From: an uncultured virus (IMG/VR IMGVR_UViG_3300042257_000362)
Taxonomy: Duplodnaviria; Heunggongvirae; Uroviricota; Caudoviricetes
Virus record (IMG/VR): IMGVR_UViG_3300042257_000362
Location: 1-64,000 of that record
Length of the DNA: 64,000 bases
Reading direction: 5' to 3' (one strand)
In this document: piece after piece, positions 906 to 61,663 of the stretch
Position numbering within the stretch: position 1 is the first letter of the stretch
Layout of the letters: every line of letters starts with the position of its first letter
Position numbers and translations under genes: made by a program
Notes under the pieces: generated by a model
Seen by the model: the letters and a program-made list of their open reading frames with translations, nothing else
Database searches by the model: none
Told to the model about the DNA's origin: nothing

Positions 906-945
906 AACGACCGACTCTAATTTAATGCGTCGATCGTTTTTTTTT
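906..945. terminator. Terminator between convergent genes
   Basis: AACGACCGAC...GTCGATCGTT stem plus T-run; equivalent hairpin at the same position in the sister element. Confidence 0.6.
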
Positions 946-1144
946 ATTTCATTATATATTCCATAATATCTTTGAAGTCACAACTTAGTGCTTTACAAAT
1001 CTTGCATAAAACATCAGTAGTTACATTCTCGCCCTTTGTGAGCTTTGCTATTGAAGAAGAACTTACACCTGAGAGCTTAATAAGCTCTTTTTTATTTATC
1101 CCTTTATCAATTAGAAGTTTCCATAACTTATTATAACTAACCAT
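944..1144 (-). CDS. Xre/Cro-C1 HTH transcriptional regulator (66 aa)
   Basis: MVSYNKLWKLLIDKGINKKEL...; start re-assigned to 1144 (GGAGG RBS); near-identical to 56963..57163. Confidence 0.88.
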   Translation of the reverse strand: MVSYNKLWKLLIDKGINKKELIKLSGVSSSSIAKLTKGENVTTDVLCKICKALSCDFKDIMEYIMK

Positions 1145-1154
1145 GCTTTCCTCC

Positions 1155-2957
1155 TTAGTTTTTTCTAATACCATTAAGTAGACCGTATCTGCCTCTGTCT
1201 TCATCTTGAGTAAATTCAATCACCTTGACTTTCGAATATGATTCAATATCAGCAGGTAAATCTTTAGGGTTTACATTCTCGATAACTATCATTTGATCAT
1301 TTTCTATACTTTCAATTATATATTTGAAAAATCCTTGTCTTACATCATCTGTTGACTCGATTCCATCTGGCATAGTTAATCCATGTAACGGAGAATCAAT
1401 TAAATAAAAATGCGGGTTGTTAATTGAAAACTCATTAATATACTTTCTCATAGATAGAATTAAAATAGTATTTAATAGAGCTCTATAGCCTTTACCGTGT
1501 GTTTTCTTTGCGTCCCCATTAACTATCACATCAAAATCATTCATATCGAAGACAACTGATTCTAGAGGTGTGAAATTGATTTTTCTTAATATGTCATAAT
1601 AATAATCTGCAATAGAAGAAGCAAAGTCATCAGGAAATAAGTCTTTCGGTTTATACTCGATATGTTTGTCAATAGTGGAATCTAAATTTGATAAGTCACT
1701 TTCAAAACCTGATAGCATTAGATTAGTTGATTCTAGTTCGTGAATAGCTTTTATGTATTCATTGTACTTGCTAATTTTTTCAGCTATAGATTGCCTATGT
1801 GGTTTGAGTTGATTATTCATATCATGATCAATATCTGACTTTTGTCTTTTTAGACCTTCCAACGTTTGCAGAAGAGCATCTTTTTCATTTGAAATATCAT
1901 CAATTGTGGTCGATAGGGCAATACTGCTAGCCAATATTTTTCTTGCTTCAGCTCTTGAAGCTTCTAGATAGGAGGATTCTTGATTTTTTTCAAGACTACC
2001 ATTACAAAACGGGCAGTTAATTGGCGATTTATGATTATGAATAACATCTTCACCTTGTATAATGAATCCAAGCCTATTTATATCTGACACATATTGTGAT
2101 TCTAATATCTTGTATCTGTCTAATTGCATATTAACTCGTCTGATCGAGTTTTCAGTTTCTATAATTTGCCTTCCAATAGTTTTTATATTTGTAATCGATT
2201 CGTCAATGATCTTGTTAGTCTCATCTAGTTCACTCTGCAAATTACTAATCATTTTCTCTAGTGATTCGCTATCTTTTTCAATTCCATTAATATATTTGCT
2301 TAAGGTCTCTCTTCGTCCAATGAGCTTTTCCTTGTTACTTATAATATATTTTTGAACAGCTGCTTTTTTAGCAGCTTTTGTTTTTTTATTTTCATCTGCA
2401 TCAAATTCAGAAAAATCTTGATCGTATAAGATGTAAAGTAAACCTGATAAGAAAGCTGTTCTAGCAGTATAGTTATCAGGTAGTAATATTGATTTTTCTA
2501 ACTCAGTGTCATTTTCATTTACGGTTAGTAATGATTTCAGTGTTCTCAATGAAAATCTTTGAGTTTGGCCATCAGTATTCTTAGGAACTTTTAATCCTAT
2601 TTTAATATCAAGCAACTTTGAAAAGAAATCTCTAATATTATCTTTTTCACCTGAGATTTTGTAGTCAGTTGTTTTATTACCTTCAAGGACGCTGATGGTA
2701 TTTGAACCAATCACTCTAGTTAGGGTTATTGATGATAAATTTTTAATTAACTCCATTCTAATCGTATCGTAGCCTATAGATTTATCAAAAGGTGCACTAT
2801 CATTACTTGCACCTAACATGTAGTAAATTGATTTATAAATATATGATTTACCAGTGTCTGAGGGACCGATGATAATTGTTAGATTCTCTCCGAAATTAAT
2901 CTCTGATACACCTTTTTCACCAGTGTACATAAGTTTGCTAATATATAATCTTCCCAT
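1155..2957 (-). CDS. SMC/Rad50-like ABC ATPase of ABC-three-component (Lamassu LmuB-like) system
   Basis: Walker A GPSDTGKS, long coiled coil with CPFC zinc hook, C-terminal GKGYRALLN and YLIDSP motifs. Confidence 0.85.
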   Translation of the reverse strand: MGRLYISKLMYTGEKGVSEINFGENLTIIIGPSDTGKSYIYKSIYYMLGASNDSAPFDKSIGYDTIRMELIKNLSSITLTRVIGSNTISVLEGNKTTDYKISGEKDNIRDFFSKLLDIKIGLKVPKNTDGQTQRFSLRTLKSLLTVNENDTELEKSILLPDNYTARTAFLSGLLYILYDQDFSEFDADENKKTKAAKKAAVQKYIISNKEKLIGRRETLSKYINGIEKDSESLEKMISNLQSELDETNKIIDESITNIKTIGRQIIETENSIRRVNMQLDRYKILESQYVSDINRLGFIIQGEDVIHNHKSPINCPFCNGSLEKNQESSYLEASRAEARKILASSIALSTTIDDISNEKDALLQTLEGLKRQKSDIDHDMNNQLKPHRQSIAEKISKYNEYIKAIHELESTNLMLSGFESDLSNLDSTIDKHIEYKPKDLFPDDFASSIADYYYDILRKINFTPLESVVFDMNDFDVIVNGDAKKTHGKGYRALLNTILILSMRKYINEFSINNPHFYLIDSPLHGLTMPDGIESTDDVRQGFFKYIIESIENDQMIVIENVNPKDLPADIESYSKVKVIEFTQDEDRGRYGLLNGIRKN

Positions 2958-2963
2958 GTCATT

Positions 2964-3401
2964 TTACCCCTTTCTTACAGCTTTTTTAGTAGCAAGCGTA
3001 ACAATTTGTTTTTCATTCATATTTGAAGTGATATCATTAACTATTTTCACACATTGACTATATTGGTTAAAGTAATCGGTATCCATTTTAGAGCAAATGA
3101 TTCTACCTTCTTCACTAATCTTGTATGTGAATCCATAAGCATTTTGAATAGGGATCACCAAACCTTCAAGAACTAGTGATTTTAATGCATCATTGATTAA
3201 TTTTCTTCTTGAAGTTATTTCACTAAAAGTATAGGTATTATCTCCATGCAAATTGAAATCAATCATATCATACGCTTTTCCATATGTTGCAAATAAATCA
3301 ATAGATGTTACTTCATCTAAAGAGCAGTTTTTATTAATGACATTCAATAAAACAAGAACTCGAAACGAAATCTCATGCTTTGAATTAAATATTTTTATCA
3401 T
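2964..3401 (-). CDS. ABC-3C middle component (LmuC-like)
   Basis: IFNS..EISFR and LHGDN..FSEITSRR motifs; lies between effector and ATPase; start re-assigned to 3401. Confidence 0.8.
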   Translation of the reverse strand: MIKIFNSKHEISFRVLVLLNVINKNCSLDEVTSIDLFATYGKAYDMIDFNLHGDNTYTFSEITSRRKLINDALKSLVLEGLVIPIQNAYGFTYKISEEGRIICSKMDTDYFNQYSQCVKIVNDITSNMNEKQIVTLATKKAVRKG

Positions 3402-4341
3402 AATCAACCACCCATTCAATTCGTCCATCATTGACTAACATGTGAATTATACCTTGTTTTTCTGAATTGCCGATTAAACCGACGTTTTGTCTAGCTAAAT
3501 ACGACCGACCATATGTAATCGTCACTGCATGATTCATTGTCCTATTAACTCTCTCGAAAGCATTATTATATGCTGCAATCATCACAGAGAATATGCCATC
3601 AAAAGTTTCATCTTTCATAATATTGAACTCTTCTTCACCATCTTCATATATGTCTCTTATTTGGTGTAACACACTATCGGCACTAAAGTATGTCTTTCTT
3701 TGAAACTTAAAATGCTCTTCATATTGAGGTTCCAAAGATTTTAAGTCGTCAACGGTCAATGGGCCTAAGCCTGCAGCTTGTGAGTACACTCTCATTAATG
3801 CATCAACATACGGCATTTCTTTTTCTAAGATATTTTCTGTAGGTACGAGTTTTGGATATAGCTTTATCGTTTTCCCACCAATCCTAACTTTGTTATCGCT
3901 AATGAATTCAGAATCTCTAATGCTAGTAGAAGGACTGACATTAACAATGTAATACATAATATCATCCAACGTATCAGTAAGTCCTTGTTCAAAGTCAGTG
4001 GGATTAATTTTGATATTAAAAATCTCGAACTCAGAAATAATATGGTCTATTGCTTCTACTGAAAGATTACTAGAAAAACTTTCAAAGGTTGATGAGTCCA
4101 AATTGCCACGTATAAAAGAAGCGCAATTCTGAGGAAGTGCTTCCGTTCCATTAAAAACTTTTCTTGAAAAATCTGAAGAAAGGTCATCTATAGGGTTTTT
4201 ATCATCATCATTTATTGAAATGAATGCATTAAGATATGTCTTAAGTTTATCTTCTTTTGTTACCCTGCTAGAAGCGGATGAACACATTACTTCATTCCAA
4301 AGATACTGATCAATGATTGAGAGAAATTGATTTAGTTTCAT
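3385..4341 (-). CDS. ABC-3C first component (LmuA-like; conserved C-terminal domain, unknown N-terminus)
   Basis: C-terminal KQGIIHMLVNDGRIEWV motif; first gene of a three-gene overlapping operon. Confidence 0.75.
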   Translation of the reverse strand: MKLNQFLSIIDQYLWNEVMCSSASSRVTKEDKLKTYLNAFISINDDDKNPIDDLSSDFSRKVFNGTEALPQNCASFIRGNLDSSTFESFSSNLSVEAIDHIISEFEIFNIKINPTDFEQGLTDTLDDIMYYIVNVSPSTSIRDSEFISDNKVRIGGKTIKLYPKLVPTENILEKEMPYVDALMRVYSQAAGLGPLTVDDLKSLEPQYEEHFKFQRKTYFSADSVLHQIRDIYEDGEEEFNIMKDETFDGIFSVMIAAYNNAFERVNRTMNHAVTITYGRSYLARQNVGLIGNSEKQGIIHMLVNDGRIEWVVDYDKNI

Positions 4342-4745: not shown

Positions 4746-5330
4746 ATGAGATTGTCTAAAGCAGAAAAGAATCAAAATCCTAAATTATATGGATATGGAA
4801 CCCTCGAACAGCTTCAAAGCGATCCAGAAAACACGCAAACACACTGGATTCTTTATAAGGATGCGGATGGGGATTACAGGTTCATTCCTTGTGACGAGGC
4901 TTATTATCATGCGTATAGAAATGAAGAACGTAATGAAAGACGTTTGCGTGACTTGGAATCAAGGTGTTTAATTCCATCTGAAAAATACGGGTTAGTGAAA
5001 TGTCGAGCTGATTGTAGTCTGTGTCCAAAAGTTAGAGACGGACTTCCTATCTCTATTGATTACATGCGCGAGCATTATGGTTTTGATTTCAAAGATAAGT
5101 CTTATGAAGTAAAGGAAGAAGAATTATATGAACAAGAACAAAAGGATTTTATTTGGAATGTTGTGAGTGAACTTGATCCTGTAGATCAAAAGATACTCAA
5201 ACTCTTTAATGCGGGTAAAAAGGATGCTGAAATCGCTGAAGTATTAAGTAAATCACGAAGCAGAATTCAGGAACGCAGAGTTCAACTGATTGAACTTTTA
5301 AAAGAAAAATTAAAAAAGTTTAACGAATAA
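4746..5330 (+). CDS. Sigma-70 region-4-type (sigma-like) transcription factor
   Basis: C-terminal LDPVDQKILKL...DAEIAEVLSKSRSRIQERR HTH; Cys cluster CRADCSLC. Confidence 0.75.
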   Translation: MRLSKAEKNQNPKLYGYGTLEQLQSDPENTQTHWILYKDADGDYRFIPCDEAYYHAYRNEERNERRLRDLESRCLIPSEKYGLVKCRADCSLCPKVRDGLPISIDYMREHYGFDFKDKSYEVKEEELYEQEQKDFIWNVVSELDPVDQKILKLFNAGKKDAEIAEVLSKSRSRIQERRVQLIELLKEKLKKFNE

Positions 5331-5332
5331 CC

Positions 5333-5371
5333 GGCAAATGATAGGTTACTTTGCCATTTAACTATTGAAGG
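5333..5371 (+). promoter_or_regulatory. Candidate promoter motif A for the element I sigma-like factor
   Basis: GGCAAAT-N13-GCCATTTAACT-NN-TGAAGG, repeated with identical spacing at 35261. Confidence 0.7.
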
Positions 5372-5409
5372 GGAAAAATACCTTTTCAAAAATTAAAGGA
5401 GGTTTAGAA

Positions 5410-5586
5410 ATGCAGAAAGAAAAAAAGCCCAATAAGCCCTATCTGACGGATAAGGATTTAGTTGAAACGCTGCTATTAATCAGTGAGACATCTAAAACAT
5501 TGGCACTTGAAGTAATGTTGCTTCCGGATGAAGCAGAAGGTAATGGAGGTGAGGATGATGTCAAGAAGTCCGACGACCCACAGTAG
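5410..5586 (+). CDS. Small hypothetical phage protein
   Basis: AGGAGG RBS before ATG 5410. Confidence 0.6.
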   Translation: MQKEKKPNKPYLTDKDLVETLLLISETSKTLALEVMLLPDEAEGNGGEDDVKKSDDPQ

Positions 5587-17085: not shown

Positions 17086-17541
17086 ATGGCAAACTTAAAA
17101 TTAAAATGTAAAGTATGTGGGAGCGAATTTCTTTTTACAGACGGGGAACAAAAGTTTTATTCACAAAAGGGATATAATGTTCCTAAGAAGTGTCCGAATT
17201 GTAGGGGTGGCAAAAAATTCGTTTCTGGAAGAACTTGTTTAGATGTGTTAGCAGATTTGCATAAAAATGACCAAATAAGTTATGGAGATCTTATGGATTT
17301 TACAAGGAGTATCCGTTTTGACAATGGAGTTAATGCAAACTTACTGAAGGAGATTGGTAACATGCATAGAAATGATCAAATAAGTTATGGAGATCTAATG
17401 GATTTTATTAGAATAGTGATTGTTAATAAGTATAGTGGGGATATTCCGAGTAAGTTAAGATCATACAGAAATATGCATAGAAATGATCAAATAAGTTATG
17501 GAGATCTAATGGATTTTATTAGAAAGGAACTCCATAAGTAG
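17086..17541 (+). CDS. Zinc-ribbon protein with three HxNDQISYGDLMDF repeats (moron)
   Basis: CKVC..F.FTDGEQKFY..KG..PKKCPNCR ribbon; own TGATATAAT promoter and AGGAGG RBS. Confidence 0.75.
   Translation: MANLKLKCKVCGSEFLFTDGEQKFYSQKGYNVPKKCPNCRGGKKFVSGRTCLDVLADLHKNDQISYGDLMDFTRSIRFDNGVNANLLKEIGNMHRNDQISYGDLMDFIRIVIVNKYSGDIPSKLRSYRNMHRNDQISYGDLMDFIRKELHK
17362..17524 (+). repeat. Exact 52-bp intragenic direct repeat (17362-17413, 17473-17524), degenerate third copy near 17258
   Basis: ATGCATAGAAATGATCAAATAAGTTATGGAGATCTAATGGATTTTATTAGAA twice. Confidence 0.9.
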
Positions 17542-34870: not shown

Positions 34871-34929
34871 CTTGCTATAGTGCCTTTATTTAGGTAATAT
34901 GTGACATAACCAAATCAAGGAGGAAAAGA
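34871..34929 (+). promoter_or_regulatory. Shared promoter/leader cassette (copy 2 of 3)
   Basis: CTTGCTA...GGTAATATGT...TAACCAAA..AAGGAGG. Confidence 0.55.
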
Positions 34930-35187
34930 ATGTTAAATCAAGTGATTTTAGTAGGACGAGTAAAGAAACTCGATAAGTTAGCAGGTATTGTTTCAATCGA
35001 TATCAAGAGACCAAATGAAAAGGATTCAGATTTGATTCCTGTCAACCTAAGTGAAGGCATTATGGACAATGTCATGGAGCACTTATCAGAAAACTCTACG
35101 ATTGGAGTGAAGGCATCACTTCATATTGATGACAACATCTTAAGGATTGTCGGAGAAAAAGTAACATTCATTAACGCAAAAGAATAA
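34930..35187 (+). CDS. Short SSB-like OB-fold protein lacking acidic tail
   Basis: MLNQVILVGR...EKVTF. Confidence 0.72.
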   Translation: MLNQVILVGRVKKLDKLAGIVSIDIKRPNEKDSDLIPVNLSEGIMDNVMEHLSENSTIGVKASLHIDDNILRIVGEKVTFINAKE

Positions 35188-35204
35188 GCAGAGATTTAGA
35201 AACT

Positions 35205-35235
35205 GGCCGTACTGATAAAAAGGTACGGCTTTTTT
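35205..35235 (+). terminator. Intrinsic terminator
   Basis: GGCCGTAC...GTACGGCT plus T-run. Confidence 0.75.
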
Positions 35236-35260
35236 ATTTGCGCTTTTTTACGTATTTATT

Positions 35261-35299
35261 GGCAAATCGTGTCATACCTCGCCATTTAACTGATGAAGG
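35261..35299 (+). promoter_or_regulatory. Promoter motif A upstream of recombinase operon
   Basis: GGCAAAT-N13-GCCATTTAACT-NN-TGAAGG, as at 5333. Confidence 0.7.
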
Positions 35300-35358
35300 A
35301 GGTAATTGATATGAAAATGAACAATAAAAATAATACAATTTGGATTTTTTCTACAAAT

Positions 35359-35398
35359 AACCCGAACTTTTACACGAATTCTGCGGACTATGATTTAG
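35359..35398 (+). promoter_or_regulatory. Promoter motif B upstream of recombinase operon
   Basis: AACCCGAACTTTT-N10-TGCGGACTA-N-GATTTAG, as at 61361. Confidence 0.7.
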
Positions 35399-35410
35399 GA
35401 GGTAGTTCGT

Positions 35411-35677
35411 ATGAATAATGACACATTAATTAAAGAGTTAAGAGACAAAGGATATGGTTACAAAAAGATTGCTAATGAGCTGGAACTAAAAGTTGATACT
35501 GTTCGTTATGCTTGTTTGAGAATGGAAGAGGAAAGCCTTGTTGGTTATTGCAAACACTGTGGTCTTGAGATGAAGTCAGTAAAAGGGAAAAAGAAAAAGA
35601 TATTCTGTTCGGATAGATGCAGGTGGCAATGGTGGAATGTGCAAAGAAAAGGATCAAGTCACAATGAATCGATCTAA
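35411..35677 (+). CDS. HTH plus zinc-finger protein (candidate recombination accessory factor)
   Basis: GYGYKKIANEL HTH; CKHC...FCSDRCR. Confidence 0.75.
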   Translation: MNNDTLIKELRDKGYGYKKIANELELKVDTVRYACLRMEEESLVGYCKHCGLEMKSVKGKKKKIFCSDRCRWQWWNVQRKGSSHNESI

Positions 35678-35936
35678 TTTAGAAATGTATTACCTATCCA
35701 TCGCACCCATTAAATCAATGTTTGATGAGGGGATTTTAAGTAAATCTGAATATCTTAAAGCAGAAGCATTTTTAGCAGAAAAGTATTGTATCAATAAAGG
35801 TAACATTCATCGTCTTAACAACTTGACTAAACCCCCTAAAAGAGTGATATATGGTGTAACCAAAGAGGAGGTAAAAGATGAAGGAAAAGAAGATAACCAA
35901 AATCGAAGCATTATCCAAATTACCAAAGAAAACTAG
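35664..35936 (+). CDS. SHOCT-like small protein
   Basis: MFDEGILSKSEY...AEKY; precedes recombinases. Confidence 0.65.
   Translation: MNRSNLEMYYLSIAPIKSMFDEGILSKSEYLKAEAFLAEKYCINKGNIHRLNNLTKPPKRVIYGVTKEEVKDEGKEDNQNRSIIQITKEN
35822..35877 (+). promoter_or_regulatory. Shared promoter/leader cassette (copy 3 of 3), inside the SHOCT gene
   Basis: CTTGACTA...AGAGTGATATAT...TAACCAAA-GAGGAGG. Confidence 0.6.
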
Positions 35937-37191
35937 AGTTGCTGCTTATGCTAGGGTATCTAATGGTAAAGATGCAATGCTACATTCCTTATCTGCTCAA
36001 ATCAATTATTACAAGAAAGTGATTCAAGATAATAAAGATTGGCAGTTTGTAGGAGTGTATGCAGATGAAGCTCTCACTGGAACCAAAGACTCGAGACAAG
36101 AGTTTCAGCAGCTTTTAGAAGATTCCAAAGCTGGTAAAATTGATATGATTATTACAAAGTCTATATCAAGGTTTGCAAGAAATACAATGACACTTCTTGA
36201 GACTGTAAGAGAACTTGATAAACTAAATGTTGATGTATTTTTTGAAGAACAGAATATTCACTCAATAAGCAGCGAAGGAGAAATGGTACTTACGTTATTG
36301 GCATCTGTAGCACAGGAAGAATCAAGAAGTGTTTCAGAAAATATGAAATGGCGCATTAAGAAGGAATTTCAGCAAGGTGAGATTTGGGGAGGACGATCGC
36401 CTCTTGGGTATAACTTAAAGAATAAGACGTTTCGTGTGATTCCTAAAGAAGCTGAATTGGTGCAGCTCATCTATAAACTATATGTTGATGGTAATGGTGC
36501 TGAAGCAATTTGTCAGATATTAGATGAAAAAGGTATAAAACCTAAGGAATCTAAAAAGTGGGGTCCATCATCGATTATTAAGATTCTGTCAAATCGAAAT
36601 TATACAGGTGACTTGCTATTGCAAAAGACATACTTGAACAATCATTTATCAAAGAAACAGGTTATCAATAAAGGAGAACTTGATCGATATTTGGTTAAAG
36701 GAAATCATGAGGCAATCATAAGCAAAGAATTATTCGATAAAGTACAGAGAATTAAACAAGAGCGAGCCATTAAAAACAAATCAATTCTACCAAAGAAAAA
36801 AACGTTTCTTCATGGCTTAATACAATGTGGTAATTGTGGTTCAACTTATACACCTAAGAAGATGAGGCAGAAGGACATTTGGATTTGCTCGAAATCAGCA
36901 AGTAAAGGTCAAGATGTTTGTGATTCTAAACTTGTCCCACATAATATAATCATTGAAGCGTCTAAGCGTGTTTTGGATATGGACCAATATAGTGAGACAA
37001 TATTTAATTCGAAGGTTACTAAGATAATCGTTCAAGCGAATAAACAACTAGATTTTCATATGAGAGACGGAGCGGTTGTCAGCTATCGTTGGCAACATAA
37101 ATCAAGAAGTAAGAGTTGGACACCTGAAATGAAGGAACAAGCACGATTGAGAGCACTAGAACAACATCATGGAGGTGGAGAAAATGCCTAA
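35878..37191 (+). CDS. Large serine recombinase 1
   Basis: YARVS, KSISRFARN, recombinase domain, CGNC zinc ribbon. Confidence 0.93.
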   Translation: MKEKKITKIEALSKLPKKTRVAAYARVSNGKDAMLHSLSAQINYYKKVIQDNKDWQFVGVYADEALTGTKDSRQEFQQLLEDSKAGKIDMIITKSISRFARNTMTLLETVRELDKLNVDVFFEEQNIHSISSEGEMVLTLLASVAQEESRSVSENMKWRIKKEFQQGEIWGGRSPLGYNLKNKTFRVIPKEAELVQLIYKLYVDGNGAEAICQILDEKGIKPKESKKWGPSSIIKILSNRNYTGDLLLQKTYLNNHLSKKQVINKGELDRYLVKGNHEAIISKELFDKVQRIKQERAIKNKSILPKKKTFLHGLIQCGNCGSTYTPKKMRQKDIWICSKSASKGQDVCDSKLVPHNIIIEASKRVLDMDQYSETIFNSKVTKIIVQANKQLDFHMRDGAVVSYRWQHKSRSKSWTPEMKEQARLRALEQHHGGGENA

Positions 37192-38764
37192 GGTCACAGT
37201 AATACCATCAACAATTAATCCCATTACCCAAATGCCACTAAATGCGAATCAAGTTAAGAAAGTAGCAGCATATGCAAGGGTTTCAACAAATAGCGATGAA
37301 CAGTACACAAGCTATGAGGCACAAGTGAATTTCTACAAAAAATACATCCAAGAAAAACCTGACTGGGAATATACCGAAGTATACGCTGATGAAGGGCTTT
37401 CAGGAACAACAACTAAGAAACGAGCTGAGTTTAATCGAATGATTAAGGATGCATTAACTGGTAAGATCAATCTTATCATTACAAAGTCAATATCAAGGTT
37501 TGCGAGAAACACACTAGACACGATCTCTTATGTTAGAAAGTTAAAAGATCATGGTGTTGAAGTATTCTTTGAAAAAGAGAACTTGTGGACACTTGATCCA
37601 AAAAGTGAACTCATTTTAACCATTATGGCATCTATCGCACAAGAAGAATCACGCTCCATTAGCCAAAACGTGACGTGGGGTAAGAGGGTCGGTTTCCAGC
37701 AAGGTAAAGTTTCATTTGCCTACAAATCTTTTCTAGGCTATAAGAAAGAAGATGATAAGATTGTCATTGATGAAGATCAAGCAGTCATTGTTAGAATGAT
37801 TTATCGTATGTTTTTAATTGAAGGTAAGACTGCAACTGGCATAGCAAACTATTTAAAGTCACAACATATCAAAACGCCAAGAGGCAAAGCGAATTGGACT
37901 AAGAATAACGTGAATTCAATTCTTACCAATGAGAAGTATAAAGGTGATGCACTTCTTCAAAAGACCTATACCGAAAACTATCTTGATCATAAAATGGTTA
38001 AGAATAACGGACAAATTCCTCAGTACTATGTAGAAAATAGTCATCCAGCGATTATTGACAGAGATATGTGGGAACAGGTTCAAATTGAACTTAAACGAAG
38101 AGAACGAATTGGTGCTAAATACTCATCGTCTGATATATTTGCATCGAAACTGATATGTGAGGACTGTGGAGGATTCTATGGCAAAAAGAAATGGCATTCC
38201 AATAGCAAGTATTCTAGATTTGTGTATCAATGTAACAATAAGTTTCATAAGCATAAAGACAAATGCCAAACGCCTAATTTAGCAGAGGAGGACATTAAAC
38301 TTAAATTCATTAAAGCTTATAATCTTTCAATGGAAGATAAAGTAAGAATCATAGAAGATACATACAAAGTCATAGAACTGCTGACCGATACAGAAAAACT
38401 CGATGATGTTATTTCTGAACTTGAGGACGAGATCATGGTAACTTCAGAAATAGTGAGTAGACTTGTCAATGAAAATTCAAAAACAGACATAGCTTTAGAA
38501 GATTACAATAAAAAGTATGAAGAGTTATCCAATCGATATGACAAGCTTAAAAACAAACAAACAGACTTGTTAAACGAAAGAAATGAAAAGCAAGGACAAG
38601 CACTTAGAATGAAAGCTTTTATTGCAAGCCTATCTGAATCTGAAGATAAGCTTGATGAATGGAATGAGCGTATTTGGATGTTATTAGTTGATGGAGCAAC
38701 AGTTCACAGAGATTCGAGCATTACATTCAAGTTATACAATGGCATTGATATAAAAACAAAATAA
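37184..38764 (+). CDS. Large serine recombinase 2
   Basis: YARVST, KSISRFARN, CEDC zinc ribbon, coiled coil. Confidence 0.94.
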   Translation: MPKVTVIPSTINPITQMPLNANQVKKVAAYARVSTNSDEQYTSYEAQVNFYKKYIQEKPDWEYTEVYADEGLSGTTTKKRAEFNRMIKDALTGKINLIITKSISRFARNTLDTISYVRKLKDHGVEVFFEKENLWTLDPKSELILTIMASIAQEESRSISQNVTWGKRVGFQQGKVSFAYKSFLGYKKEDDKIVIDEDQAVIVRMIYRMFLIEGKTATGIANYLKSQHIKTPRGKANWTKNNVNSILTNEKYKGDALLQKTYTENYLDHKMVKNNGQIPQYYVENSHPAIIDRDMWEQVQIELKRRERIGAKYSSSDIFASKLICEDCGGFYGKKKWHSNSKYSRFVYQCNNKFHKHKDKCQTPNLAEEDIKLKFIKAYNLSMEDKVRIIEDTYKVIELLTDTEKLDDVISELEDEIMVTSEIVSRLVNENSKTDIALEDYNKKYEELSNRYDKLKNKQTDLLNERNEKQGQALRMKAFIASLSESEDKLDEWNERIWMLLVDGATVHRDSSITFKLYNGIDIKTK

Positions 38765-38802: not shown

Positions 38803-38873
38803 GTTTTTGTCATTTTTATAATTAAGAAGGTATGATATAATTTATTTAAGAGGATATCTAAGGGGAGAACATC

Positions 38874-39003
38874 ATGGATAATTACGAAGTAGCGGTTAGA
38901 GGTACGAATTTAGCTGCACAAATTTTAGGTATGAAAGCTCTTGAAGTTCTGTTTTTTTTATAATCAAAATCATTCTAAAAGGGGTATTAATCCCATATTT
39001 CTA
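38874..39003 (+). pseudogene. Decayed 5' fragment of the HExxH protein gene seen intact at 45190
   Basis: MDNYEVAVRGTNLAAQILGM vs MDNYEVAINGTTLAAQILGI; frame breaks in a T-run; upstream promoter also matches. Confidence 0.85.
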
Positions 39004-44479: not shown

Positions 44480-44944
44480 TTATCTTACTTTTTTCATAAA
44501 TGCTTCAAGTTGCTTAGTTTTAGGATTTTCCAAAATGTCTGGTTCACCATGTTCGATAATATGTCCGTCATCTAGAAAGACAACATAATCAGCAAAATCT
44601 TTTACAAAACTTATAACATGGGTGACAAAAATAAAATCTTTTCCTAACCCCTTTAATTCTTCAATAGCTGTTAAAACCTCATCAGTTAAAATAGGATCAA
44701 GAGAAGATGTTGGTTCATCTAAAAAGACAATATCAGGATTCATAGCAAGTGCTCTTGCAATTGATGCTCTTTGTGCCTGTCCTCCAGAAACATTTCTCGG
44801 TAGTTTATAGTGTTGATCTCTAAGATGTAGAAGATCTAGATACTTGTCAGCAATTTGTGATGCTTTTTCTTCATCAACTTTTCTTGTTTTTTCTAAAACC
44901 AATGTAATATTTTTCTTAAGTGTTAAATGAGGAAAAAGATTATG
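44480..44944 (-). pseudogene. 5'-truncated polar amino-acid ABC ATPase (GlnQ-like)
   Basis: HNLFPHL, VSGGQAQR, FLDEPTSSLDP, FVTH present; Walker A half absent. Confidence 0.85.
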
Positions 44945-45097
44945 GAAACATTCATAACCAATCTAAAAAAATCAGAAAATGAACTATCTGATTGGAATGT
45001 ACGAATATGGATGCTTATGGTGGAAAGTGCAACTGTCCATAGGAATTCGAGTATAACGTTTAGGTTTCGCAATGGAGTCTCTATAAAAATTAACTGA
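44942..45097 (+). pseudogene. 3' remnant of large serine recombinase 2 homologue
   Basis: METFITNLKKSENELSDWNVRIWMLMVESATVHRNSSITFRFRNG matches MKAFIASLSESEDKLDEWNERIWMLLVDGATVHRDSSITFKLYNG. Confidence 0.92.
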
Positions 45098-45124
45098 GTC
45101 GCTTGAAAAATAGCGACTTTTTTT
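45097..45124 (+). terminator. Intrinsic terminator
   Basis: AGTCGCT...AGCGACT plus T-run. Confidence 0.75.
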
Positions 45125-45189
45125 GTATTTTTATAATTAAGAAAATATGTTATAATTTTAGTTAAGAGAATATCTTGGAGGACCACATC

Positions 45190-45651
45190 ATGGATAACTA
45201 CGAAGTTGCAATCAATGGGACTACTTTAGCTGCACAGATTCTAGGTATAGAAACTCCTGATGTGCAGTTTTTTTATAACCAAGATTTAACGGAAAAAGGG
45301 ATCAACTCCATTTTTCTAAAGGATAAATATATCATAGCATTTAATGAAGAGTGGATAGAGCAAGCAAATCAAGTGGAAATTCTAATCACTTGTTTCCATG
45401 AGAGTAGACATGCACTCCAATGGAAAGTTATAACTGGTGAGTACACCGGAACTGAAGTAATAGATCCAATGACGATTCATAAATGGAAAGATGAAATGAG
45501 CAATTACAATTCACCTACAAAAAAAGACATTCCAGAAGAAGAATATCTAAAGCAGGCGATTGAGATTGATGCTATAGCATTTGCACATAAGATGATGTTA
45601 GAACATTTTGGGGTAAGAACTTATGTACCAAATATGATTGAAAATAAATAA
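45190..45651 (+). CDS. HExxH zincin-like metallopeptidase
   Basis: CFHESRH and EIDAIAFA; start re-assigned to 45190. Confidence 0.75.
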   Translation: MDNYEVAINGTTLAAQILGIETPDVQFFYNQDLTEKGINSIFLKDKYIIAFNEEWIEQANQVEILITCFHESRHALQWKVITGEYTGTEVIDPMTIHKWKDEMSNYNSPTKKDIPEEEYLKQAIEIDAIAFAHKMMLEHFGVRTYVPNMIENK

Positions 45652-56925: not shown

Positions 56926-56963
56926 AGCGACCCAGCTCTTAATTGAGTTGAGTCGCTTTTTTT
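56926..56963. terminator. Terminator between convergent genes
   Basis: AGCGACCCAGCTC...GAGTTGAGTCGCT plus T-run. Confidence 0.72.
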
Positions 56964-57163
56964 TATTTGTCTATATATTCCATGATGTCCTTAAAATCGC
57001 ACTTTAAAGCTTTGCAGATTTTACATAGAACGTCTGTTGTAACATTCTGACCTTTTGTCATTTTTGCTATGGAAGATGAACTTACTCCAGAGAGCTTAAT
57101 GAGCTCTTTTTTATTTAGCCCCTTATCGATTAGTAGTTTCCATAATTTATTATAACTAACCAT
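56963..57163 (-). CDS. Xre/Cro-C1 HTH transcriptional regulator
   Basis: Near-identical to 944..1144. Confidence 0.88.
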   Translation of the reverse strand: MVSYNKLWKLLIDKGLNKKELIKLSGVSSSSIAKMTKGQNVTTDVLCKICKALKCDFKDIMEYIDK

Positions 57164-57174
57164 TAGATTTCCTC

Positions 57175-58977
57175 CTAATTTTTTCTAATGCCTTTTAGTA
57201 ATCCATATCGGCCTTTGTTCTCACTTTTTGTAAATTCTATAATACTAATATTTGGATCGGTGTTAATATCTTTTGAAAGATCACCAGGAACAATGTTTTC
57301 CATAATAATAATTTGATCATCTCCATAATTATTAATAACGTAGTTAAAAAACCCTTTTCTAACGTTTTCATCTTGTTGAACTCCTTCTGGCATCTGTATA
57401 CCATGCAAAGGAGAATCTAATAAATAGAAGTGAGGGTTCTTGATAGCAACTTCATTGATGTATTCACGCATAGAGAGAATCATTATTGAATTGAGTAATG
57501 CTCTTACACCTTTTCCATGTGTCTTTTTTTCATCTCCATTAACAATTATATCGAGTTTAGATAAATCAAATTCCGCTGAATTTGCTGGAGTATATTTACA
57601 TCTCTTTAGTATTGATAGGTATGTCTTATTTATAGTAGAGATAAAATCATCTGCAAATAACTCTTTTGGTTTATATGCACGTTTTTCACTTACCGTAGAG
57701 TCAAGATGGGATAAATCATTCTCAAAGTTATCAAGCAAAGAATTGATTAATTCTAAATCATTCGATGCTTTTACATAGGCTGAGTATTGACTAATTTTTT
57801 GAGTAATAGATACTTTTTGCGGTTTTAATTCGGTGCTTAGCAGATTGTCGATAGATTTCTTTTTCTTTTTCAAATCTTTAAGCTCATCTAAATAACTAGA
57901 AACTTCAAAATCTATATCTATTAGTGTTTGAGATAAAGACATACTGTTATTTAGTATTTTAACAACTTCAGCTCTCGAAGATTCCAAATAAGAAGCTTCT
58001 TGTTCCTTTTCTAATTCCCCATTGCAGAACGGGCAGTTATGTGGTGATTCATGCTTGTGGATTATATCCTCACCTTGAATGATGAAACCTAACCTCTCAA
58101 TGTCAGCAATATATTGAGATTCGAGTGCTTTGTATCTGTTTTGAGTTATCTTTCTTGTTCTAATTAATTCTTCTTTCTTGGTTATCTCGGAGCTTACATT
58201 TCTCATATCATTTATTGTTGATGAAATGAGTGAATTTGTCTTGTCAAGCTCGGTTTGGAGATCTTCAATTAAATTCTCAAGATATGTATTATCTCCATTT
58301 TTCTCAGACAAGAATTTTTCAAGTGAGTCTTTTTGCTGCAAAAACTTTTCTTTATTACTAATGATATACTTTTGAACAGCAGCTCTTTTAGCAGCTTTGG
58401 TTTTTTTATTTTCTTCTGCATCAAACTCTGAATAATCTTGTTCATATAAAATATACAATAAGCATGATAAGAATGAAGTTGTGTTTTGAACAATGTCAGG
58501 AGTCAATATAGGTTTTTCTAACTCAGTATTATCCTCATGTACAAATAGTAGTGGTTTTAGACTTCGAAATGAAAAAGCCTCAGTTTGACCATCTTCATTT
58601 TTAGGTACTTGTAGCGATACAGGTATATCTAATATCTCAGAAAAGACTTCTCTAATGTTATCTTTTTTTCCACTAACTTTATAAATCTTATTCTTTATAC
58701 CATCATTAACGAGAATTTTATTTTCACCGATTTTTCTAGTTAATGTAATATGCGAATTGTCCTTCCTTACTTCCATAGAAATAGTATCATATCCAATTGA
58801 AGTATCAAAAGGTGCGTTCTTATTGCTAGAGCCTAAAAGATAATAAATTGACTTAAACACATATGTTTTACCGGTATCAGAAGGGCCAAAAATCAACGTT
58901 AGGTTTTCACCAAATGTGATTTCTGAGATTCCTTTAGTTCCAGTAAAAGTTAGTTTATTTATGTGAAATTTTCCCAT
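57175..58977 (-). CDS. SMC/Rad50-like ABC ATPase of ABC-3C system, copy 2
   Basis: GPSDTGKT, CPFC hook, YLLDSP. Confidence 0.85.
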   Translation of the reverse strand: MGKFHINKLTFTGTKGISEITFGENLTLIFGPSDTGKTYVFKSIYYLLGSSNKNAPFDTSIGYDTISMEVRKDNSHITLTRKIGENKILVNDGIKNKIYKVSGKKDNIREVFSEILDIPVSLQVPKNEDGQTEAFSFRSLKPLLFVHEDNTELEKPILTPDIVQNTTSFLSCLLYILYEQDYSEFDAEENKKTKAAKRAAVQKYIISNKEKFLQQKDSLEKFLSEKNGDNTYLENLIEDLQTELDKTNSLISSTINDMRNVSSEITKKEELIRTRKITQNRYKALESQYIADIERLGFIIQGEDIIHKHESPHNCPFCNGELEKEQEASYLESSRAEVVKILNNSMSLSQTLIDIDFEVSSYLDELKDLKKKKKSIDNLLSTELKPQKVSITQKISQYSAYVKASNDLELINSLLDNFENDLSHLDSTVSEKRAYKPKELFADDFISTINKTYLSILKRCKYTPANSAEFDLSKLDIIVNGDEKKTHGKGVRALLNSIMILSMREYINEVAIKNPHFYLLDSPLHGIQMPEGVQQDENVRKGFFNYVINNYGDDQIIIMENIVPGDLSKDINTDPNISIIEFTKSENKGRYGLLKGIRKN

Positions 58978-58982
58978 ATAAG

Positions 58983-59420
58983 TTATTCCCTCCTAACAGA
59001 TTCTTTTGTAGCATAATTGATTAATTTTTCATCGGTCCAATTTTGCGTTTTTTGAATAATCAATCTGACACTATCAATATACTTTTTAAAATAATCAGTT
59101 TCCATTTTTTCACAAACCTTACGACCATCCTCACTGATAATATATGTAAATCCATAAGCGTTTTGAAGTGGCATTAGTAATCCGGATAAAACGAGAGTGT
59201 TTATTGATTGGGAAACCTGATATCTTCGTGATGCAATTTCGCTAAAGCTATATGAACTGTCTCCGTGAAGATTAAATTCCAAAAAACCATAGTTTTTTCC
59301 ATAACTTGAAAACAAATCAATAGTTGTAATATGATCAACTGATATTGGAGCTCTCATCACATTTGTTATAACGAGAACTCTTAATGATATTTCAAGTTCA
59401 GAATTAAATATCTGTGTCAT
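58983..59420 (-). CDS. ABC-3C middle component, copy 2
   Basis: IFNSELEISLR; LHGD..SFSEIASRR. Confidence 0.8.
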   Translation of the reverse strand: MTQIFNSELEISLRVLVITNVMRAPISVDHITTIDLFSSYGKNYGFLEFNLHGDSSYSFSEIASRRYQVSQSINTLVLSGLLMPLQNAYGFTYIISEDGRKVCEKMETDYFKKYIDSVRLIIQKTQNWTDEKLINYATKESVRRE

Positions 59421-60357
59421 AATCAACCACCCACTCAATCTTCCCTTCATTAACTAGCATATGAACCATTCCTTGTTTTTCAGGGTTTCCAATAATGCCA
59501 TTATTGTCTCTAGTTAAAATGTTTTTGCTAAAGGTAATATCAACAACTTTTTGCATTGTACTATCAACTCTTTCGAGAGCATTCTTATACTCTTTCATGA
59601 TAGTAATTTCAATACCAGAAAGTAAATCTGCTTTCGCTTCGTTAAACTCGTATTCTCCATCTGGAAATACATCTCTAATTTGATGAAGAACACTCTCGGC
59701 GTTAAAATAATTTTCTCTTTGTAATTTAAAATGTTTTTCATATCTTGGATGCATTGATTTTAGATCAGTTAATGATATTGATCCGAATTTTTCTGATTGT
59801 GCATAGACACGTAGTAAGGCATCAACATACCGTATTTCATTTTTTATTATAGCTTCTGTAGGGACAAGCTTATCTAATAAATTTACTGTCTTACCTCCGA
59901 TTTTAACTTGGTTGTGACCGATAAAAACTGCATCACGTATTGAAGCTGAAGGCTTCACGTTTATAACGTAATAGAGTATGGTATCTAAGACCTTAGTAAT
60001 ATCTTTTTCAAAATTATCAAAAGTTATGGTGAAATTATAAGTCGCAAACTGTGAAATCATTCCATTTCTAGCATCCTCAGAGAGATCTTCTGAAAATATT
60101 TCAAATGTATAATAATCCAAATTTTCTTTTATATAAGAGGCGCAATCTACAGGTAAAGATTCTACTCCATTGAAAACCTTAAGTAAAAACCCATCTTTTC
60201 TCTTCTCGATTGGATTAGCTGAATCCACTGCGGATACAAATGCATTCAAATAAGTCTTTAATTTGTCTGCTTTTGTAACCCTACCAGATTTAGAACCGCT
60301 TAAGACTTTATGACTAAAATATTGTTCCATTATTGATAAAAAATCATTTAGTTTCAT
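59404..60357 (-). CDS. ABC-3C first component, copy 2
   Basis: Homologous to 3385..4341; KQGMVHMLVNEGKIEWV. Confidence 0.75.
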   Translation of the reverse strand: MKLNDFLSIMEQYFSHKVLSGSKSGRVTKADKLKTYLNAFVSAVDSANPIEKRKDGFLLKVFNGVESLPVDCASYIKENLDYYTFEIFSEDLSEDARNGMISQFATYNFTITFDNFEKDITKVLDTILYYVINVKPSASIRDAVFIGHNQVKIGGKTVNLLDKLVPTEAIIKNEIRYVDALLRVYAQSEKFGSISLTDLKSMHPRYEKHFKLQRENYFNAESVLHQIRDVFPDGEYEFNEAKADLLSGIEITIMKEYKNALERVDSTMQKVVDITFSKNILTRDNNGIIGNPEKQGMVHMLVNEGKIEWVVDYDTDI

Positions 60358-60747: not shown

Positions 60748-61380
60748 ATGAAATTACGTAAAACACCAATCTCGAAAAGAATGACATACACCTATTTTTT
60801 TGCTAACGGAGATAAGGTCATCCTGGAACCAGGAAGATCAACAACGATTTATGCATCCGGTGGTAGAACCATACAAGTTGATGAATCTATCACTGAAATC
60901 ACAATTACCGAACTTCACAGACAAGATGATGCTGAAGTAAGAGCAAACCTTAAATATATCAACTGTGAAAGCAACATAGAGCGACAAGCACGCATAGCTA
61001 ATAAAAAGAAGTGGGCTATGGAACATCCTGAAGAAGTTAATCCATATGACAAACCACCAAGAATCATGAATCTCGATGCATTTAATGATGATGAAAACTC
61101 ACAAGACGATAAAAGCAGTCTGTTATATAAAGCATCTATTTACTCAGAGCAAATCAACTCTGATGATAATTATGAAAAGCTCGAGCTCATCAAAGAGTTT
61201 GTTGCTACATTACCAACTACCATGCAAGAGATGTTTGACCTTATCTATATTCAAGAACTAAAACAATCAGATGTTTGCTCGATTTTAGGTATATCAAAAA
61301 GCACGGTATCAGAACGTGTAAAAACACTTAACAAAAAAATAATTGAACATTTTTCAAACCAACCCGAACTTTTGAGATAA
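60748..61380 (+). CDS. Sigma-70 region-4-type factor (different allele from element I)
   Basis: LPTTMQEMFDLIY..ELKQSDVCSILGISKSTVSERV HTH; start re-assigned to 60748. Confidence 0.75.
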   Translation: MKLRKTPISKRMTYTYFFANGDKVILEPGRSTTIYASGGRTIQVDESITEITITELHRQDDAEVRANLKYINCESNIERQARIANKKKWAMEHPEEVNPYDKPPRIMNLDAFNDDENSQDDKSSLLYKASIYSEQINSDDNYEKLELIKEFVATLPTTMQEMFDLIYIQELKQSDVCSILGISKSTVSERVKTLNKKIIEHFSNQPELLR

Positions 61381-61400
61381 AAATGCGGACTAAGATTTAG
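61361..61400 (+). promoter_or_regulatory. Candidate promoter motif B for the second sigma-like factor
   Basis: AACCCGAACTTTT-N10-TGCGGACTA-N-GATTTAG; duplicated at 35359. Confidence 0.7.
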
Positions 61401-61435
61401 AAGGCAAAAAAGCACTTCTAGAAAAGAGGAAAAAT

Positions 61436-61663
61436 ATGCAATCCAAAAAGCATAGAGTTCGCATTAATTTAGCGGACAAAAGGAGTAGGAATACCAACAT
61501 CATCGAGACTATGGATGAGACACTTCCAAAAAAACTATTCAATAAGTTATTCGGTAAGAAAAAACGAGTCTTGATTATTGCTCCAAGTGATTCGGTAACA
61601 GGCATTGAAATATATGAAGAGGTAGGTGAAAGAAATGTCAAGAAGCCCAACGGTTCACAGTAG
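61436..61663 (+). CDS. Small hypothetical phage protein
   Basis: AGAGG RBS; occupies the slot of 5410..5586 but is unrelated. Confidence 0.65.
   Translation: MQSKKHRVRINLADKRSRNTNIIETMDETLPKKLFNKLFGKKKRVLIIAPSDSVTGIEIYEEVGERNVKKPNGSQ

Follow-up and report, generated by a model that had tools for sequence, protein, structure and literature searches.

Candidate promoter motifs for two unrelated types of phage-encoded sigma-like factor in the leader of a prophage recombinase operon

Phages commonly encode sigma factors of their own that read private promoters, and this is textbook knowledge. The defective prophage PBSX carries Xpf, a small sigma-like positive control factor that drives the late genes. 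In the satellite P4 and its helper P2 the late promoters are transactivated reciprocally, and related activators read one promoter type.

Mobile elements also place their excision under the control of particular promoters. For Tn916 a split sigma factor, Sig7-Sig8 (Orf7 and Orf8), has been described that is required for excision and has a promoter termed Psig7 (bioRxiv 10.64898/2026.10.01.756105). In SPbeta the excision factor gene sprB is read from two promoters that lie 5 kb apart and answer host sigma factors, the main one after DNA damage, with sporulation sigmas E or K as the further readers (PMC4191935). In Listeria, the induction of co-resident phage elements is coordinated through an anti-repressor and an SOS regulator (PMC9043618). 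In the locus analyzed in this work two prophages with different sigma-like genes share one record, and motifs of both types stand before a recombinase operon.

The window, by which we mean the whole stretch of DNA that was analyzed, comprises the first 64 kb of a virus record of 99,745 bases (~99.7 kb). Two related prophages, which point the same way, lie in the record: element I (~922-38800) and a sister (~56939 to beyond 97240) that is 75-88% identical to element I across most genes. In both phages the left arm lies on the minus strand and encodes an HTH protein and an ABC-3C system. The divergent sigma-like gene comes next, followed by a small ORF and the replication module (DUF2800-type nuclease, helicase, primase), and later by the packaging, head, tail and lysis genes, a terminator and the recombinase operon. 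The segment 3463-5557 has no DNA match between the two phages. The factor gene with its motif, the small ORF and the divergent intergenic region all fall within it, as does the greater part of the CTD6 gene. The sigma-region-4 protein is not the same in the two phages, and directly behind each gene stands its own motif. Relatives of both phages are found in genomes labelled Tenericutes, Izemoplasmatales and Acholeplasmataceae, and a blastn search of the phage GenBank collection with 34900-36000 returned a single irrelevant match of 54 bases. The features that matter for the following are these:

4746..5330, plus strand: sigA-type sigma-like gene of element I, 194 aa, with four invariant cysteines in the middle of the protein and a region-4 fold at the C-terminus
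5333..5371, plus strand: motif A, sigma-gene copy (A1), exact match; putative promoter (P_A) ahead of the small ORF and the replication genes
5410..5586, plus strand: ORF of 58 aa, found only with sigA-type genes and kept in 7/7 sigA loci examined
35205..35240, plus strand: intrinsic terminator-like hairpin (9-bp stem, 5 G-C pairs) and T-run that closes the late/lysis region before the leader
35261..35299, plus strand: motif A, recombinase-operon copy (A2), exact match; putative P_A
35311..35418, plus strand: upstream ORF of 35 codons that crosses motif B and has its stop 8 nt inside the next gene
35359..35398, plus strand: motif B, recombinase-operon copy, exact match; putative promoter P_B
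35411..35677, plus strand: hthZn, first gene of the operon, 88-aa HTH and zinc-ribbon protein with invariant Cys pairs, phrog_2308
35637..35936, plus strand: 99-aa SHOCT-domain protein (Pfam SHOCT_2, 32.4 bits)
35878..37191, plus strand: large serine recombinase 1, 437 aa (Pfam Resolvase, Recombinase, Zn_ribbon_recom; phrog_95 integrase)
37169..38764, plus strand: large serine recombinase 2, 531 aa (Pfam Resolvase, Recombinase, Zn_ribbon_recom; phrog_95 integrase)
60748..61380, plus strand: sigB-type sigma-like gene of the sister phage, 210 aa, Pfam Sigma70_r4_2
61361..61400, plus strand: motif B, sigma-gene copy (B2), exact match; putative P_B ahead of the sister's small ORF and replication genes
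61436..61663, plus strand: ORF of 75 aa, found only with sigB-type genes; phrog_7234, of unknown function

The leader of the recombinase operon comprises the 150 bases at 35261-35410. When related leaders are read by eye, a hairpin and T-run are seen at the same place, irrespective of which motifs these leaders carry. Motif A has the form GGCAAAT-N13-GCCATTTAACT-NN-TGAAGG and matches exactly at 5333-5371 and 35261-35299. Motif B has the form AACCCGAACTTTT-N10-TGCGGACTA-N-GATTTAG and matches exactly at 35359-35398 and 61361-61400. A preliminary description had placed both pairs at these positions, and this was correct. No other motif A was found in the window even when 2-3 mismatches were allowed, and 0/100 dinucleotide-preserving shuffles gave two motif A matches. 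For motif B a search of the window at 2-3 mismatches likewise gave no further copy, with 0 expected from dinucleotide-preserving shuffles. It had also been noted that the spacing is the same within each pair while the spacers differ, and the letters of both pairs bear this out (GATAGGTTACTTT versus CGTGTCATACCTC for motif A, GAGATAAAAA versus ACACGAATTC for motif B). Copy A1 starts 3 nt past the stop codon of the 194-aa gene, and copy B2 overlaps the stop and final codons of the 210-aa gene. The GGAGG ribosome-binding site that was said to follow each copy in the leader is present as well. Behind the motif at 35261 it lies within TGAAGGAGG and is followed by the ATG at 35311, and behind the motif at 35359 it lies within TTTAGGAGG and is followed by the ATG at 35411. 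The final bases of motif A form the ribosome-binding site of the upstream ORF and those of motif B that of hthZn, the gene that in relatives is always found directly behind the motifs. The start of the upstream ORF matches the position of the HTH-zinc-ribbon start codon in leaders that carry motif A only. Both recombinases have all three Pfam domains of large serine recombinases above the cut-off.

Beyond the window, a third exact motif B is located at 94297 of the whole record, before the recombinase operon of the sister. A near-copy of motif A, GGCAAAA-N13-GCCATTAACT, stands before the same operon at ~94198. It has one substitution and one T fewer, and the substituted position also varies among relatives. 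In a weight-matrix scan of all 99,745 bases only six sites exceeded 5 bits, and these are the A and B copies named above. Motif A at 35261 scores 55.4 bits, the best for matrix A in the record, and motif B at 35359 scores 63.6 bits; three shuffles reached at most 0, 9.5 and 0 bits with matrix A, and with matrix B the maximum was 0 bits in all three. At 61361 motif B is part of a coding sequence, and its frame there is unlike its frame at 35359, so its conservation is at the level of the DNA. Both motifs consist of two unrelated conserved blocks at fixed spacing and have no repeat symmetry. Across relatives the spacer of motif A is 13 nt throughout and that of motif B is 10 nt, but 9 nt in L066, L120 and G014. 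The blocks sit 3-10 nt before the ribosome-binding site and directly behind the terminator. Thus, the features of a bipartite promoter are found in both motifs, namely blocks at fixed spacing, a position upstream of a gene start and co-occurrence with a factor. Promoters of the ECF type have an AAC-containing -35 and a CG-containing -10 element about 16 nt apart. Motif B reads CGAAC, 16 nt, CGGAC, which agrees with the general ECF form GAAC, 16 nt, CG(G/T). Motif A is without AAC and is not assignable to the ECF-type consensus.

The preliminary description asked whether the motif type tracks the sigma clade. This is the case at all factor gene ends that were counted. An A-type motif stands at the end of 11/11 genes of the sigA family (61-100% protein identity), 3-6 nt past the stop in 10 of them and overlapping an extended reading frame in one, and a B-type motif stands at the end of 12/12 genes of the sigB family (39-100% protein identity). 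Together, 23/23 factor genes have the motif of their own type at their end. Scans of IMG/VR with the exact patterns gave 22 stretches with motif B and 21 with motif A. As judged by tblastn, every B stretch either stands where a sigB-type gene ends or precedes an HTH-zinc-ribbon gene; the A stretches follow a sigA-type gene or precede an HTH-zinc-ribbon gene, save 2/21. These two (L036, L042) have none of the query genes nearby and were left uncounted; they were taken as chance matches because the pattern has only 17 specified bases and the collection is so large. In eight whole genomes (1.7-2.3 Mb), which each have one recombinase cassette, the motifs occur solely at the sigma gene end and before mobile-element operons, nearly always the recombinase operon. 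The association with the factor genes and these operons is exclusive there. The A pattern is present exactly twice in each of four sigA genomes and once more in a sigma-less island of genome G014, counted with a pattern that begins CGGCAAA and misses leaders reading TTGGCAAAT, as in G020. The B pattern is present exactly twice each in G013, G020 and G014, and reversed-pattern controls gave 0 matches in the eight genomes.

Leaders with a single motif agree with this pairing. A leader with motif A only goes together with a sigA-type factor in five cases, three of them on the same contig with the leader 29-31 kb downstream (G006, G011, G012) and two on neighbouring contigs of the same genome (G016, G419). 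A leader with motif B only goes together with a sigB-type factor in G013 and G017. The match is thus 7/7 (5 A-only, 2 B-only) and no mismatched pair was seen. An exact test gives p ~0.05 for this, a value to be read with the relatedness of the phages in mind, which are therefore not independent; several pairings rest on draft genomes and the independent phages are few. G307 was left out of the pairing, as its sigA-like gene (27% identity) is followed by different sequence and is not tied to the A-only leader of that genome. A class-wide sample searched with the sigB profile (401 genomes sampled, 399 scored) was too thin to add to this, and only two already-known genomes matched.

The most diverged pair is instructive. 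The factor of G017 is 39% identical to sigB, and the first block (CCCGAACTTTT) is kept at both G017 sites. The second block has changed from TGCGGACTA to TCGGTCCT, followed by AGACTTGAGGA, and it has done so in both copies. In the alignment of the sigB family the C-terminal recognition helix SKSTVSER is invariant and the rest has diverged. This co-variation is the pattern that a two-domain reader with region 4 on the first block would give. A smaller change of the same kind is seen in G013, where both copies have GACTTAG versus GATTTAG in the present record. Relatives of sigA at ~75% identity have GCCATTAATC at the gene-proximal site and GCCATTTAAC before the recombinases, and hence that part of the second block of motif A tolerates variation.

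Both factors had been described as sigma-like. This stands for the C-terminal part, where a region 4 domain is present in sigB by Pfam (Sigma70_r4_2, 27.9 bits, cut-off 25.7) and in sigA by fold alignment, but in the rest of the protein no region 2 was found by Pfam (no Sigma70_r2 match), NCBIfam or fold. The sigA protein has no Pfam match. It corresponds to phrog_13787 and also weakly matches phrog_1740 'RNA polymerase sigma factor', and its invariant cysteines are C74, C86, C90 and C93. With the NCBIfam model TIGR02937 (sigma70-ECF) sigA scores 33.1 bits and sigB 41.0 bits, both below the cut-off of 42.9, and sigB weakly matches NF005385 'positive control sigma-like factor' (E 0.0073). Residues 118-194 of sigA can be aligned to ~20 solved sigma region-4 chains (VIA-align; Z 8-11, rmsd 1.3-3.0 over 60-77 residues). 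It is to sigma region 4, with the leading helix included, that the fold matches best, and a Foldseek search of the sigA model against the PDB gave nothing at E <= 0.001 and weak region-4 rows only. The structure models rest on shallow alignments of 5-6 rows, with a pLDDT of 73 for sigA and a mean pLDDT of 60 for sigB, where the N-terminal part is of low confidence. The N-terminal halves, rich in beta structure or in cysteines, have pLDDT values mostly of 40-85, and the fold search hardly probed them. The two factors have no detectable similarity to each other (BLASTP E 1.8).

The small ORF behind each factor gene is conserved and co-varies with the factor type. For neither the 58-aa nor the 75-aa product was a family matched in Pfam or NCBIfam, although E values of up to 5 were allowed. 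The 58-aa product is a possible partner of the sigA-type factor and, as Orf7 and Orf8 of Tn916 have been reported as a split sigma, a two-subunit factor is a live possibility here. A complex prediction for sigB and the 75-aa protein (score 0.07, mark 0.32) says nothing for or against binding. We infer that the factors act as sigmas, alone or with a partner, rather than as activators.

The tandem arrangement had been presented as a property of element I. This turned out to be too narrow, as the sister and many relatives share it. The recombinase operon of the sister (record ~94168 onward) is 87% identical to 35229-38301 and has the same tandem leader, which is therefore a shared feature of the recombinase module and not peculiar to element I. 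Whether related phages stack motifs at this place had been raised as a check, and 11 distinct variants of the tandem leader were found. When these were aligned (13 loci), 36/42 columns of the motif A block and 39/44 columns of the motif B block were invariant, compared with 18/56 between the motifs, 21/80 upstream and 22/40 in the first coding bases. Among tandem leaders the spacers within the motifs show conservation as well. Most of these leaders are closely related, so part of the conservation reflects shared descent. The stretch between the motifs exists in three divergent forms, yet an ORF of 35-36 codons is open in 11/11 distinct tandem leaders. This anatomy suggests that an A-type leader acquired a B-type leader behind its start codon.

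The tandem leader is joined to recombinase modules of 95-100%, ~66% (L016, L022) and ~51% (L015) identity, where in L015 the identity breaks after ~18 codons, and it is found behind two different upstream hairpins. Three phages with this leader have a known factor: element I with sigA, the sister with sigB and the IMG/VR contig 3300006192_000019 with sigB, in which A and B are both exact. In G001 the tandem leader is combined with a wholly different early region that has neither factor. G020 has the sigB gene with its motif on contig C1, and the one further B site in its 2.2 Mb belongs to a tandem leader on C2. Several tandem leaders have single lesions in motif A (L014, L016/L022, L021/L074). 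The form of motif A in the sister, GCCATTAAC, is also found where A is the sole motif (L078, L079, L090). The preliminary description had named decay of motif B in other A-type phages as the mark of a mere relic. No decayed motif B was seen, but the A-only leaders are of another lineage and have no trace of motif B, and this comparison is thus inapplicable in the form in which it was posed.

Stacking is not confined to this arrangement. Closely set A and B motifs without the short ORF are present in L023, L087 and L111-113; the leader of G015 (L111) was set aside as a remnant, its recombinase gene being broken into three frames. In G014 profile searches detected no sigA or sigB gene. A small island of this genome carries stacked motifs before both of its operons, in the order B, A, 363-aa AAA_25 helicase, DUF6933 protein, a variant of A, B, HTH-zinc-ribbon gene and two serine recombinases. 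B and A stand before the helicase gene, and A and B before the recombinases. The helicase corresponds to the C-terminal half of the phage primase and is 52-64% identical to its best 80 IMG/VR relatives. These are ordinary phage primases with no A or B motif within 1.5 kb. The helicase was not found in four other records with sigma-less leaders, and neither these records nor the 80 primase loci yielded a second island of this kind. The G014 island has the look of an element that relies on a phage for its factor.

That promoter motifs for both factor types stand before the recombinase operon is a sound reading of the sequences, and the recombinase genes can probably be switched on by either phage type. 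We favor the explanation that both motifs are promoters of the neighbouring factor type, that each factor has two targets and that the tandem leader answers either factor, and we give this a probability of about 0.62. The terminator would separate the leader from late transcription, and the leader would hold two promoters in tandem, with P_A pairing with the 194-aa Cys-rich sigA type and P_B with the 210-aa sigB type. The factor gene would be the first early gene in phages of this group. Its product would fire just two promoters, one behind its own gene that leads into replication and one ~30 kb away that leads into the recombinases, and excision or integration would thereby be coupled to the start of replication. 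The tandem leader would have arisen by recombination between an A-only and a B-only leader, and the A-only start codon would survive as that of the 35-codon upstream ORF. It would have been kept because the recombinase module then works with either early module in a population of phages that swap modules. A co-resident or incoming phage of the other type could also fire the recombinase module in trans. The earlier proposal that the excision genes answer either sigma type is thus borne out as far as the tie between motif and factor (23/23 and 7/7) and the placement in the leader are concerned; that motifs A and B are promoters read by the neighbouring protein, and that both are active within one leader, is what we infer from these patterns. 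Two consequences had been drawn from the proposal, a universal cassette that is compatible with different sigma modules and cross-induction of prophages. The former has more comparative support, owing to the mosaic joins of the tandem leader. Cross-activation between co-resident elements is possible in the present record, in G020 and in G014.

Three other explanations have to be weighed against this one. The tandem leader might be a relic of recombination in which only the cognate motif works, while the other came along with a leader exchange, has no role and is as yet undecayed. We consider this unlikely. It would fit the fact that for other phages a single motif of their own type suffices in the leader, A with sigA and B with sigB, that most tandem leaders form one closely related lineage in which the spacers are conserved as well, and that single lesions of motif A occur in 5/11 distinct leaders, including that of the sister, which uses sigB. 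However, the form that appears as a lesion in the sister, GCCATTAAC, is the normal one in the A-only leaders L078, L079 and L090. Both motif blocks are also far better conserved than the inter-motif and the adjoining coding sequence. The tandem leader persists across three divergent recombinase modules and two upstream hairpins, and stacking recurs in other arrangements and in the sigma-less island.

A further explanation concerns the proteins and is in our view less probable again. The motifs might be conventional activator or repressor sites, to which the region-4-like protein binds alone in order to aid or block the main sigma of the host without replacing it. From their sequences the two proteins may indeed be activators rather than sigmas, given that they fall short of the NCBIfam sigma model and that the searches detected no region 2. 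LuxR/GerE-type regulators are also among the fold matches of sigA, and the nearest protein-atlas clusters mix GerE and Sigma70_r4_2. Yet these regulators match at a lower Z of 6-8 and it is sigma region 4 with its leading helix that fits best, the two blocks of each motif are unrelated and have no direct or inverted symmetry, unlike the sites of dimeric HTH regulators, and no host-type promoter is conserved within the motifs. The candidate for such a promoter, TATGAT of motif B, reads TAAGAC in G013 and G017 with the final T lost, and a consensus scan found nothing conserved. We regard it as very improbable that the repeats act as RNA, for instance as leader structures, processing sites or translational signals common to both transcripts. 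The conserved stretch does extend into the ribosome-binding region (TGAAGG, GATTTAGGAGG), and a predicted hairpin joins the spacer of motif B to the ribosome-binding site of hthZn; the fold of 35285-35425 is, however, no better than that of shuffles (z = -1.03; 32/200 shuffles fold as well), 35150-35450 has no Rfam match up to E = 1, a stem GGCAAA/TTTGCC is possible in copy A1 but absent from copy A2, and the frame in which motif B forms part of a coding sequence at 61361 differs from its frame at 35359.

If the favored explanation holds and both promoters of the tandem leader work, they would offer a mechanism at the level of the sequence by which mosaic phages swap regulatory modules with their excision control intact. 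Co-resident prophages and sigma-less islands could listen to each other. In this uncultured group, whose relatives are Izemoplasmatales and Acholeplasmataceae, the motif type would be a readable marker of the phages that can trigger a given element. The two factor-promoter pairs would be compact and orthogonal, with only two natural targets each, and are therefore candidate genetic parts. We may speculate, although we rather doubt it, that stacked private promoters form a plug-in adaptor for several unrelated factors. Integration and replication modules of this population would then bear the signals of several such factors together and keep working when the early region is exchanged, co-resident prophages would excise together, and small elements without a factor such as the G014 island would be woken, as sigma-hijacking satellites, by an infecting phage of either type.

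Literature searches that were not aimed at stacked promoters gave no leader in which private promoters of two unrelated phage-encoded factors are stacked, and nothing on such leaders was found among the listed papers on Izemoplasmatales with prophage. The closest published cases that we found are Sig7-Sig8 of Tn916 and sprB of SPbeta, and neither stacks promoters of two unrelated element-encoded factors. As described there, Tn916 is like the present phages in that a mobile element encodes a region-4-only protein with a small gene next to it, and the firing of its element-specific promoter together with the need of excision for the factor can be likened to the circuit proposed here. The Tn916 factor has been shown to bind RNA polymerase, whereas the present factors are putative sigmas. 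In Tn916, as reported, one factor serves one promoter upstream of the factor genes and activates itself. In contrast, the putative promoter here lies behind the factor gene, has a second copy 30 kb away and is stacked there with one of an unrelated type; moreover, the small ORFs match no family. In SPbeta a recombination gene is transcribed from distinct promoters for different sigma factors, which sets the time of excision, and this resembles the present case. Here, however, the readers would be encoded by phages, and by different ones, and the promoters would lie 100 bp apart in one leader. The Listeria elements are likewise two phage elements of one chromosome with coordinated induction, although the coordination described in that source does not work by promoter stacking.

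Xpf of PBSX and the proposed factors are alike in the scheme of a small sigma-like prophage protein that turns on phage promoters of its own; the targets here would be the replication and recombinase operons, with only two sites per phage. With P4 and P2 the present phages share the principle that the promoters of one element answer the activator of another element in the same cell. However, in the recombinase leader described here two unrelated promoter types would be stacked, so that unrelated factors would each find a site.

The leader that precedes the recombinase operon carries more than the stacked putative promoter motifs A and B, the bipartite repeats tied to sigA-type and sigB-type sigma-like genes. 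A 35-codon upstream ORF (window 35311-35418 in element I) extends through motif B, and its last 8 nt overlap the beginning of the next gene. This frame is open in 11 of 11 distinct tandem leaders, while its first half occurs in three divergent forms, and it may provide translational coupling for transcripts initiated at motif A. A subset of the leaders shows an inverted pair, CTCAACGATTT / AAATCGTTGA(G/A)G, on either side of some 70-100 nt that immediately precede motif A; the pair may serve as an operator or as a site for recombination. The pair lies 10-150 nt upstream of motif A at L023, L035, L044, L087, L089 and L111-L113.

At the gene-proximal copies of the motifs, short hairpins drawn by eye follow immediately on the 3' side, at 5371-5395 (GAAGGGG...CCTTTTC) and 61395-61420 (AGAAG...CTTCT). 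Their arms were seen again in sequences of relatives, and judged by sequence the hairpins could give the transcript a 5'-terminal stem.

In the related genome G020 (2.2 Mb) a sigB-type gene with its motif lies on contig C1 at about 1529152, and the genome's one remaining B motif is located in a tandem leader on contig C2 at about 54819. Contig C2 is labelled as a plasmid in its record. In another relative, G014, profile searches of the genome found neither a sigA nor a sigB gene, and stacked motifs are present in a small island.

L127:12877-16296 (G014:C1, about 675379-681180): small island, stacked motifs before both operons

The first operon of this island has B followed by A and then a gene for a 363-aa helicase that corresponds to the C-terminal half of a phage primase; the second has a variant of A followed by B, and then an HTH-zinc-ribbon gene and two serine recombinases. 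We regard the island as a candidate phage-dependent satellite. DUF960 and DUF6933 proteins adjoin its stacked-motif operons.

The left arms of both prophages and the borders of element I hold the following features.

379-450 and 469-556: a pair of tRNA genes close to the left border of element I (55.9 and 49.7 bits against Rfam tRNA)
944-4341 and 56963-60357, minus strand: ABC-3C three-gene system, left arm of each prophage

In both prophages the ABC-3C genes encode a 600-aa ATPase, Middle Component 2 and a CTD6-domain protein, and a Cro/C1-type HTH gene adjoins them. Just after the recombinase operon, a 164-base stretch (38804-38967) is 81% identical to 45120-45282, 6 kb downstream, and in the related genome G001 the counterpart of 44942-45621 lies directly 3' of the recombinase operon. 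Together, the repeat and the G001 arrangement may bear on the attachment site. A different repeat is contained in ORF 17086-17541, where three tandem copies of ~108 nt (17255-17524; 92-98% identical) encode a repeated peptide with NDQISYGDLMDF.

Relatives from genomes of Clostridia type carry a third bipartite signal, CCGTCCCGTTTTC-N7-CGTGGCCTACCTGTGAGG, at the same place, upstream of HTH-zinc-ribbon homologues (L088, L091, L092, L095, L102 and L104), and a further, different leader is conserved among Oscillospiraceae-type loci (L096-L106). More families of factors may follow the principle.
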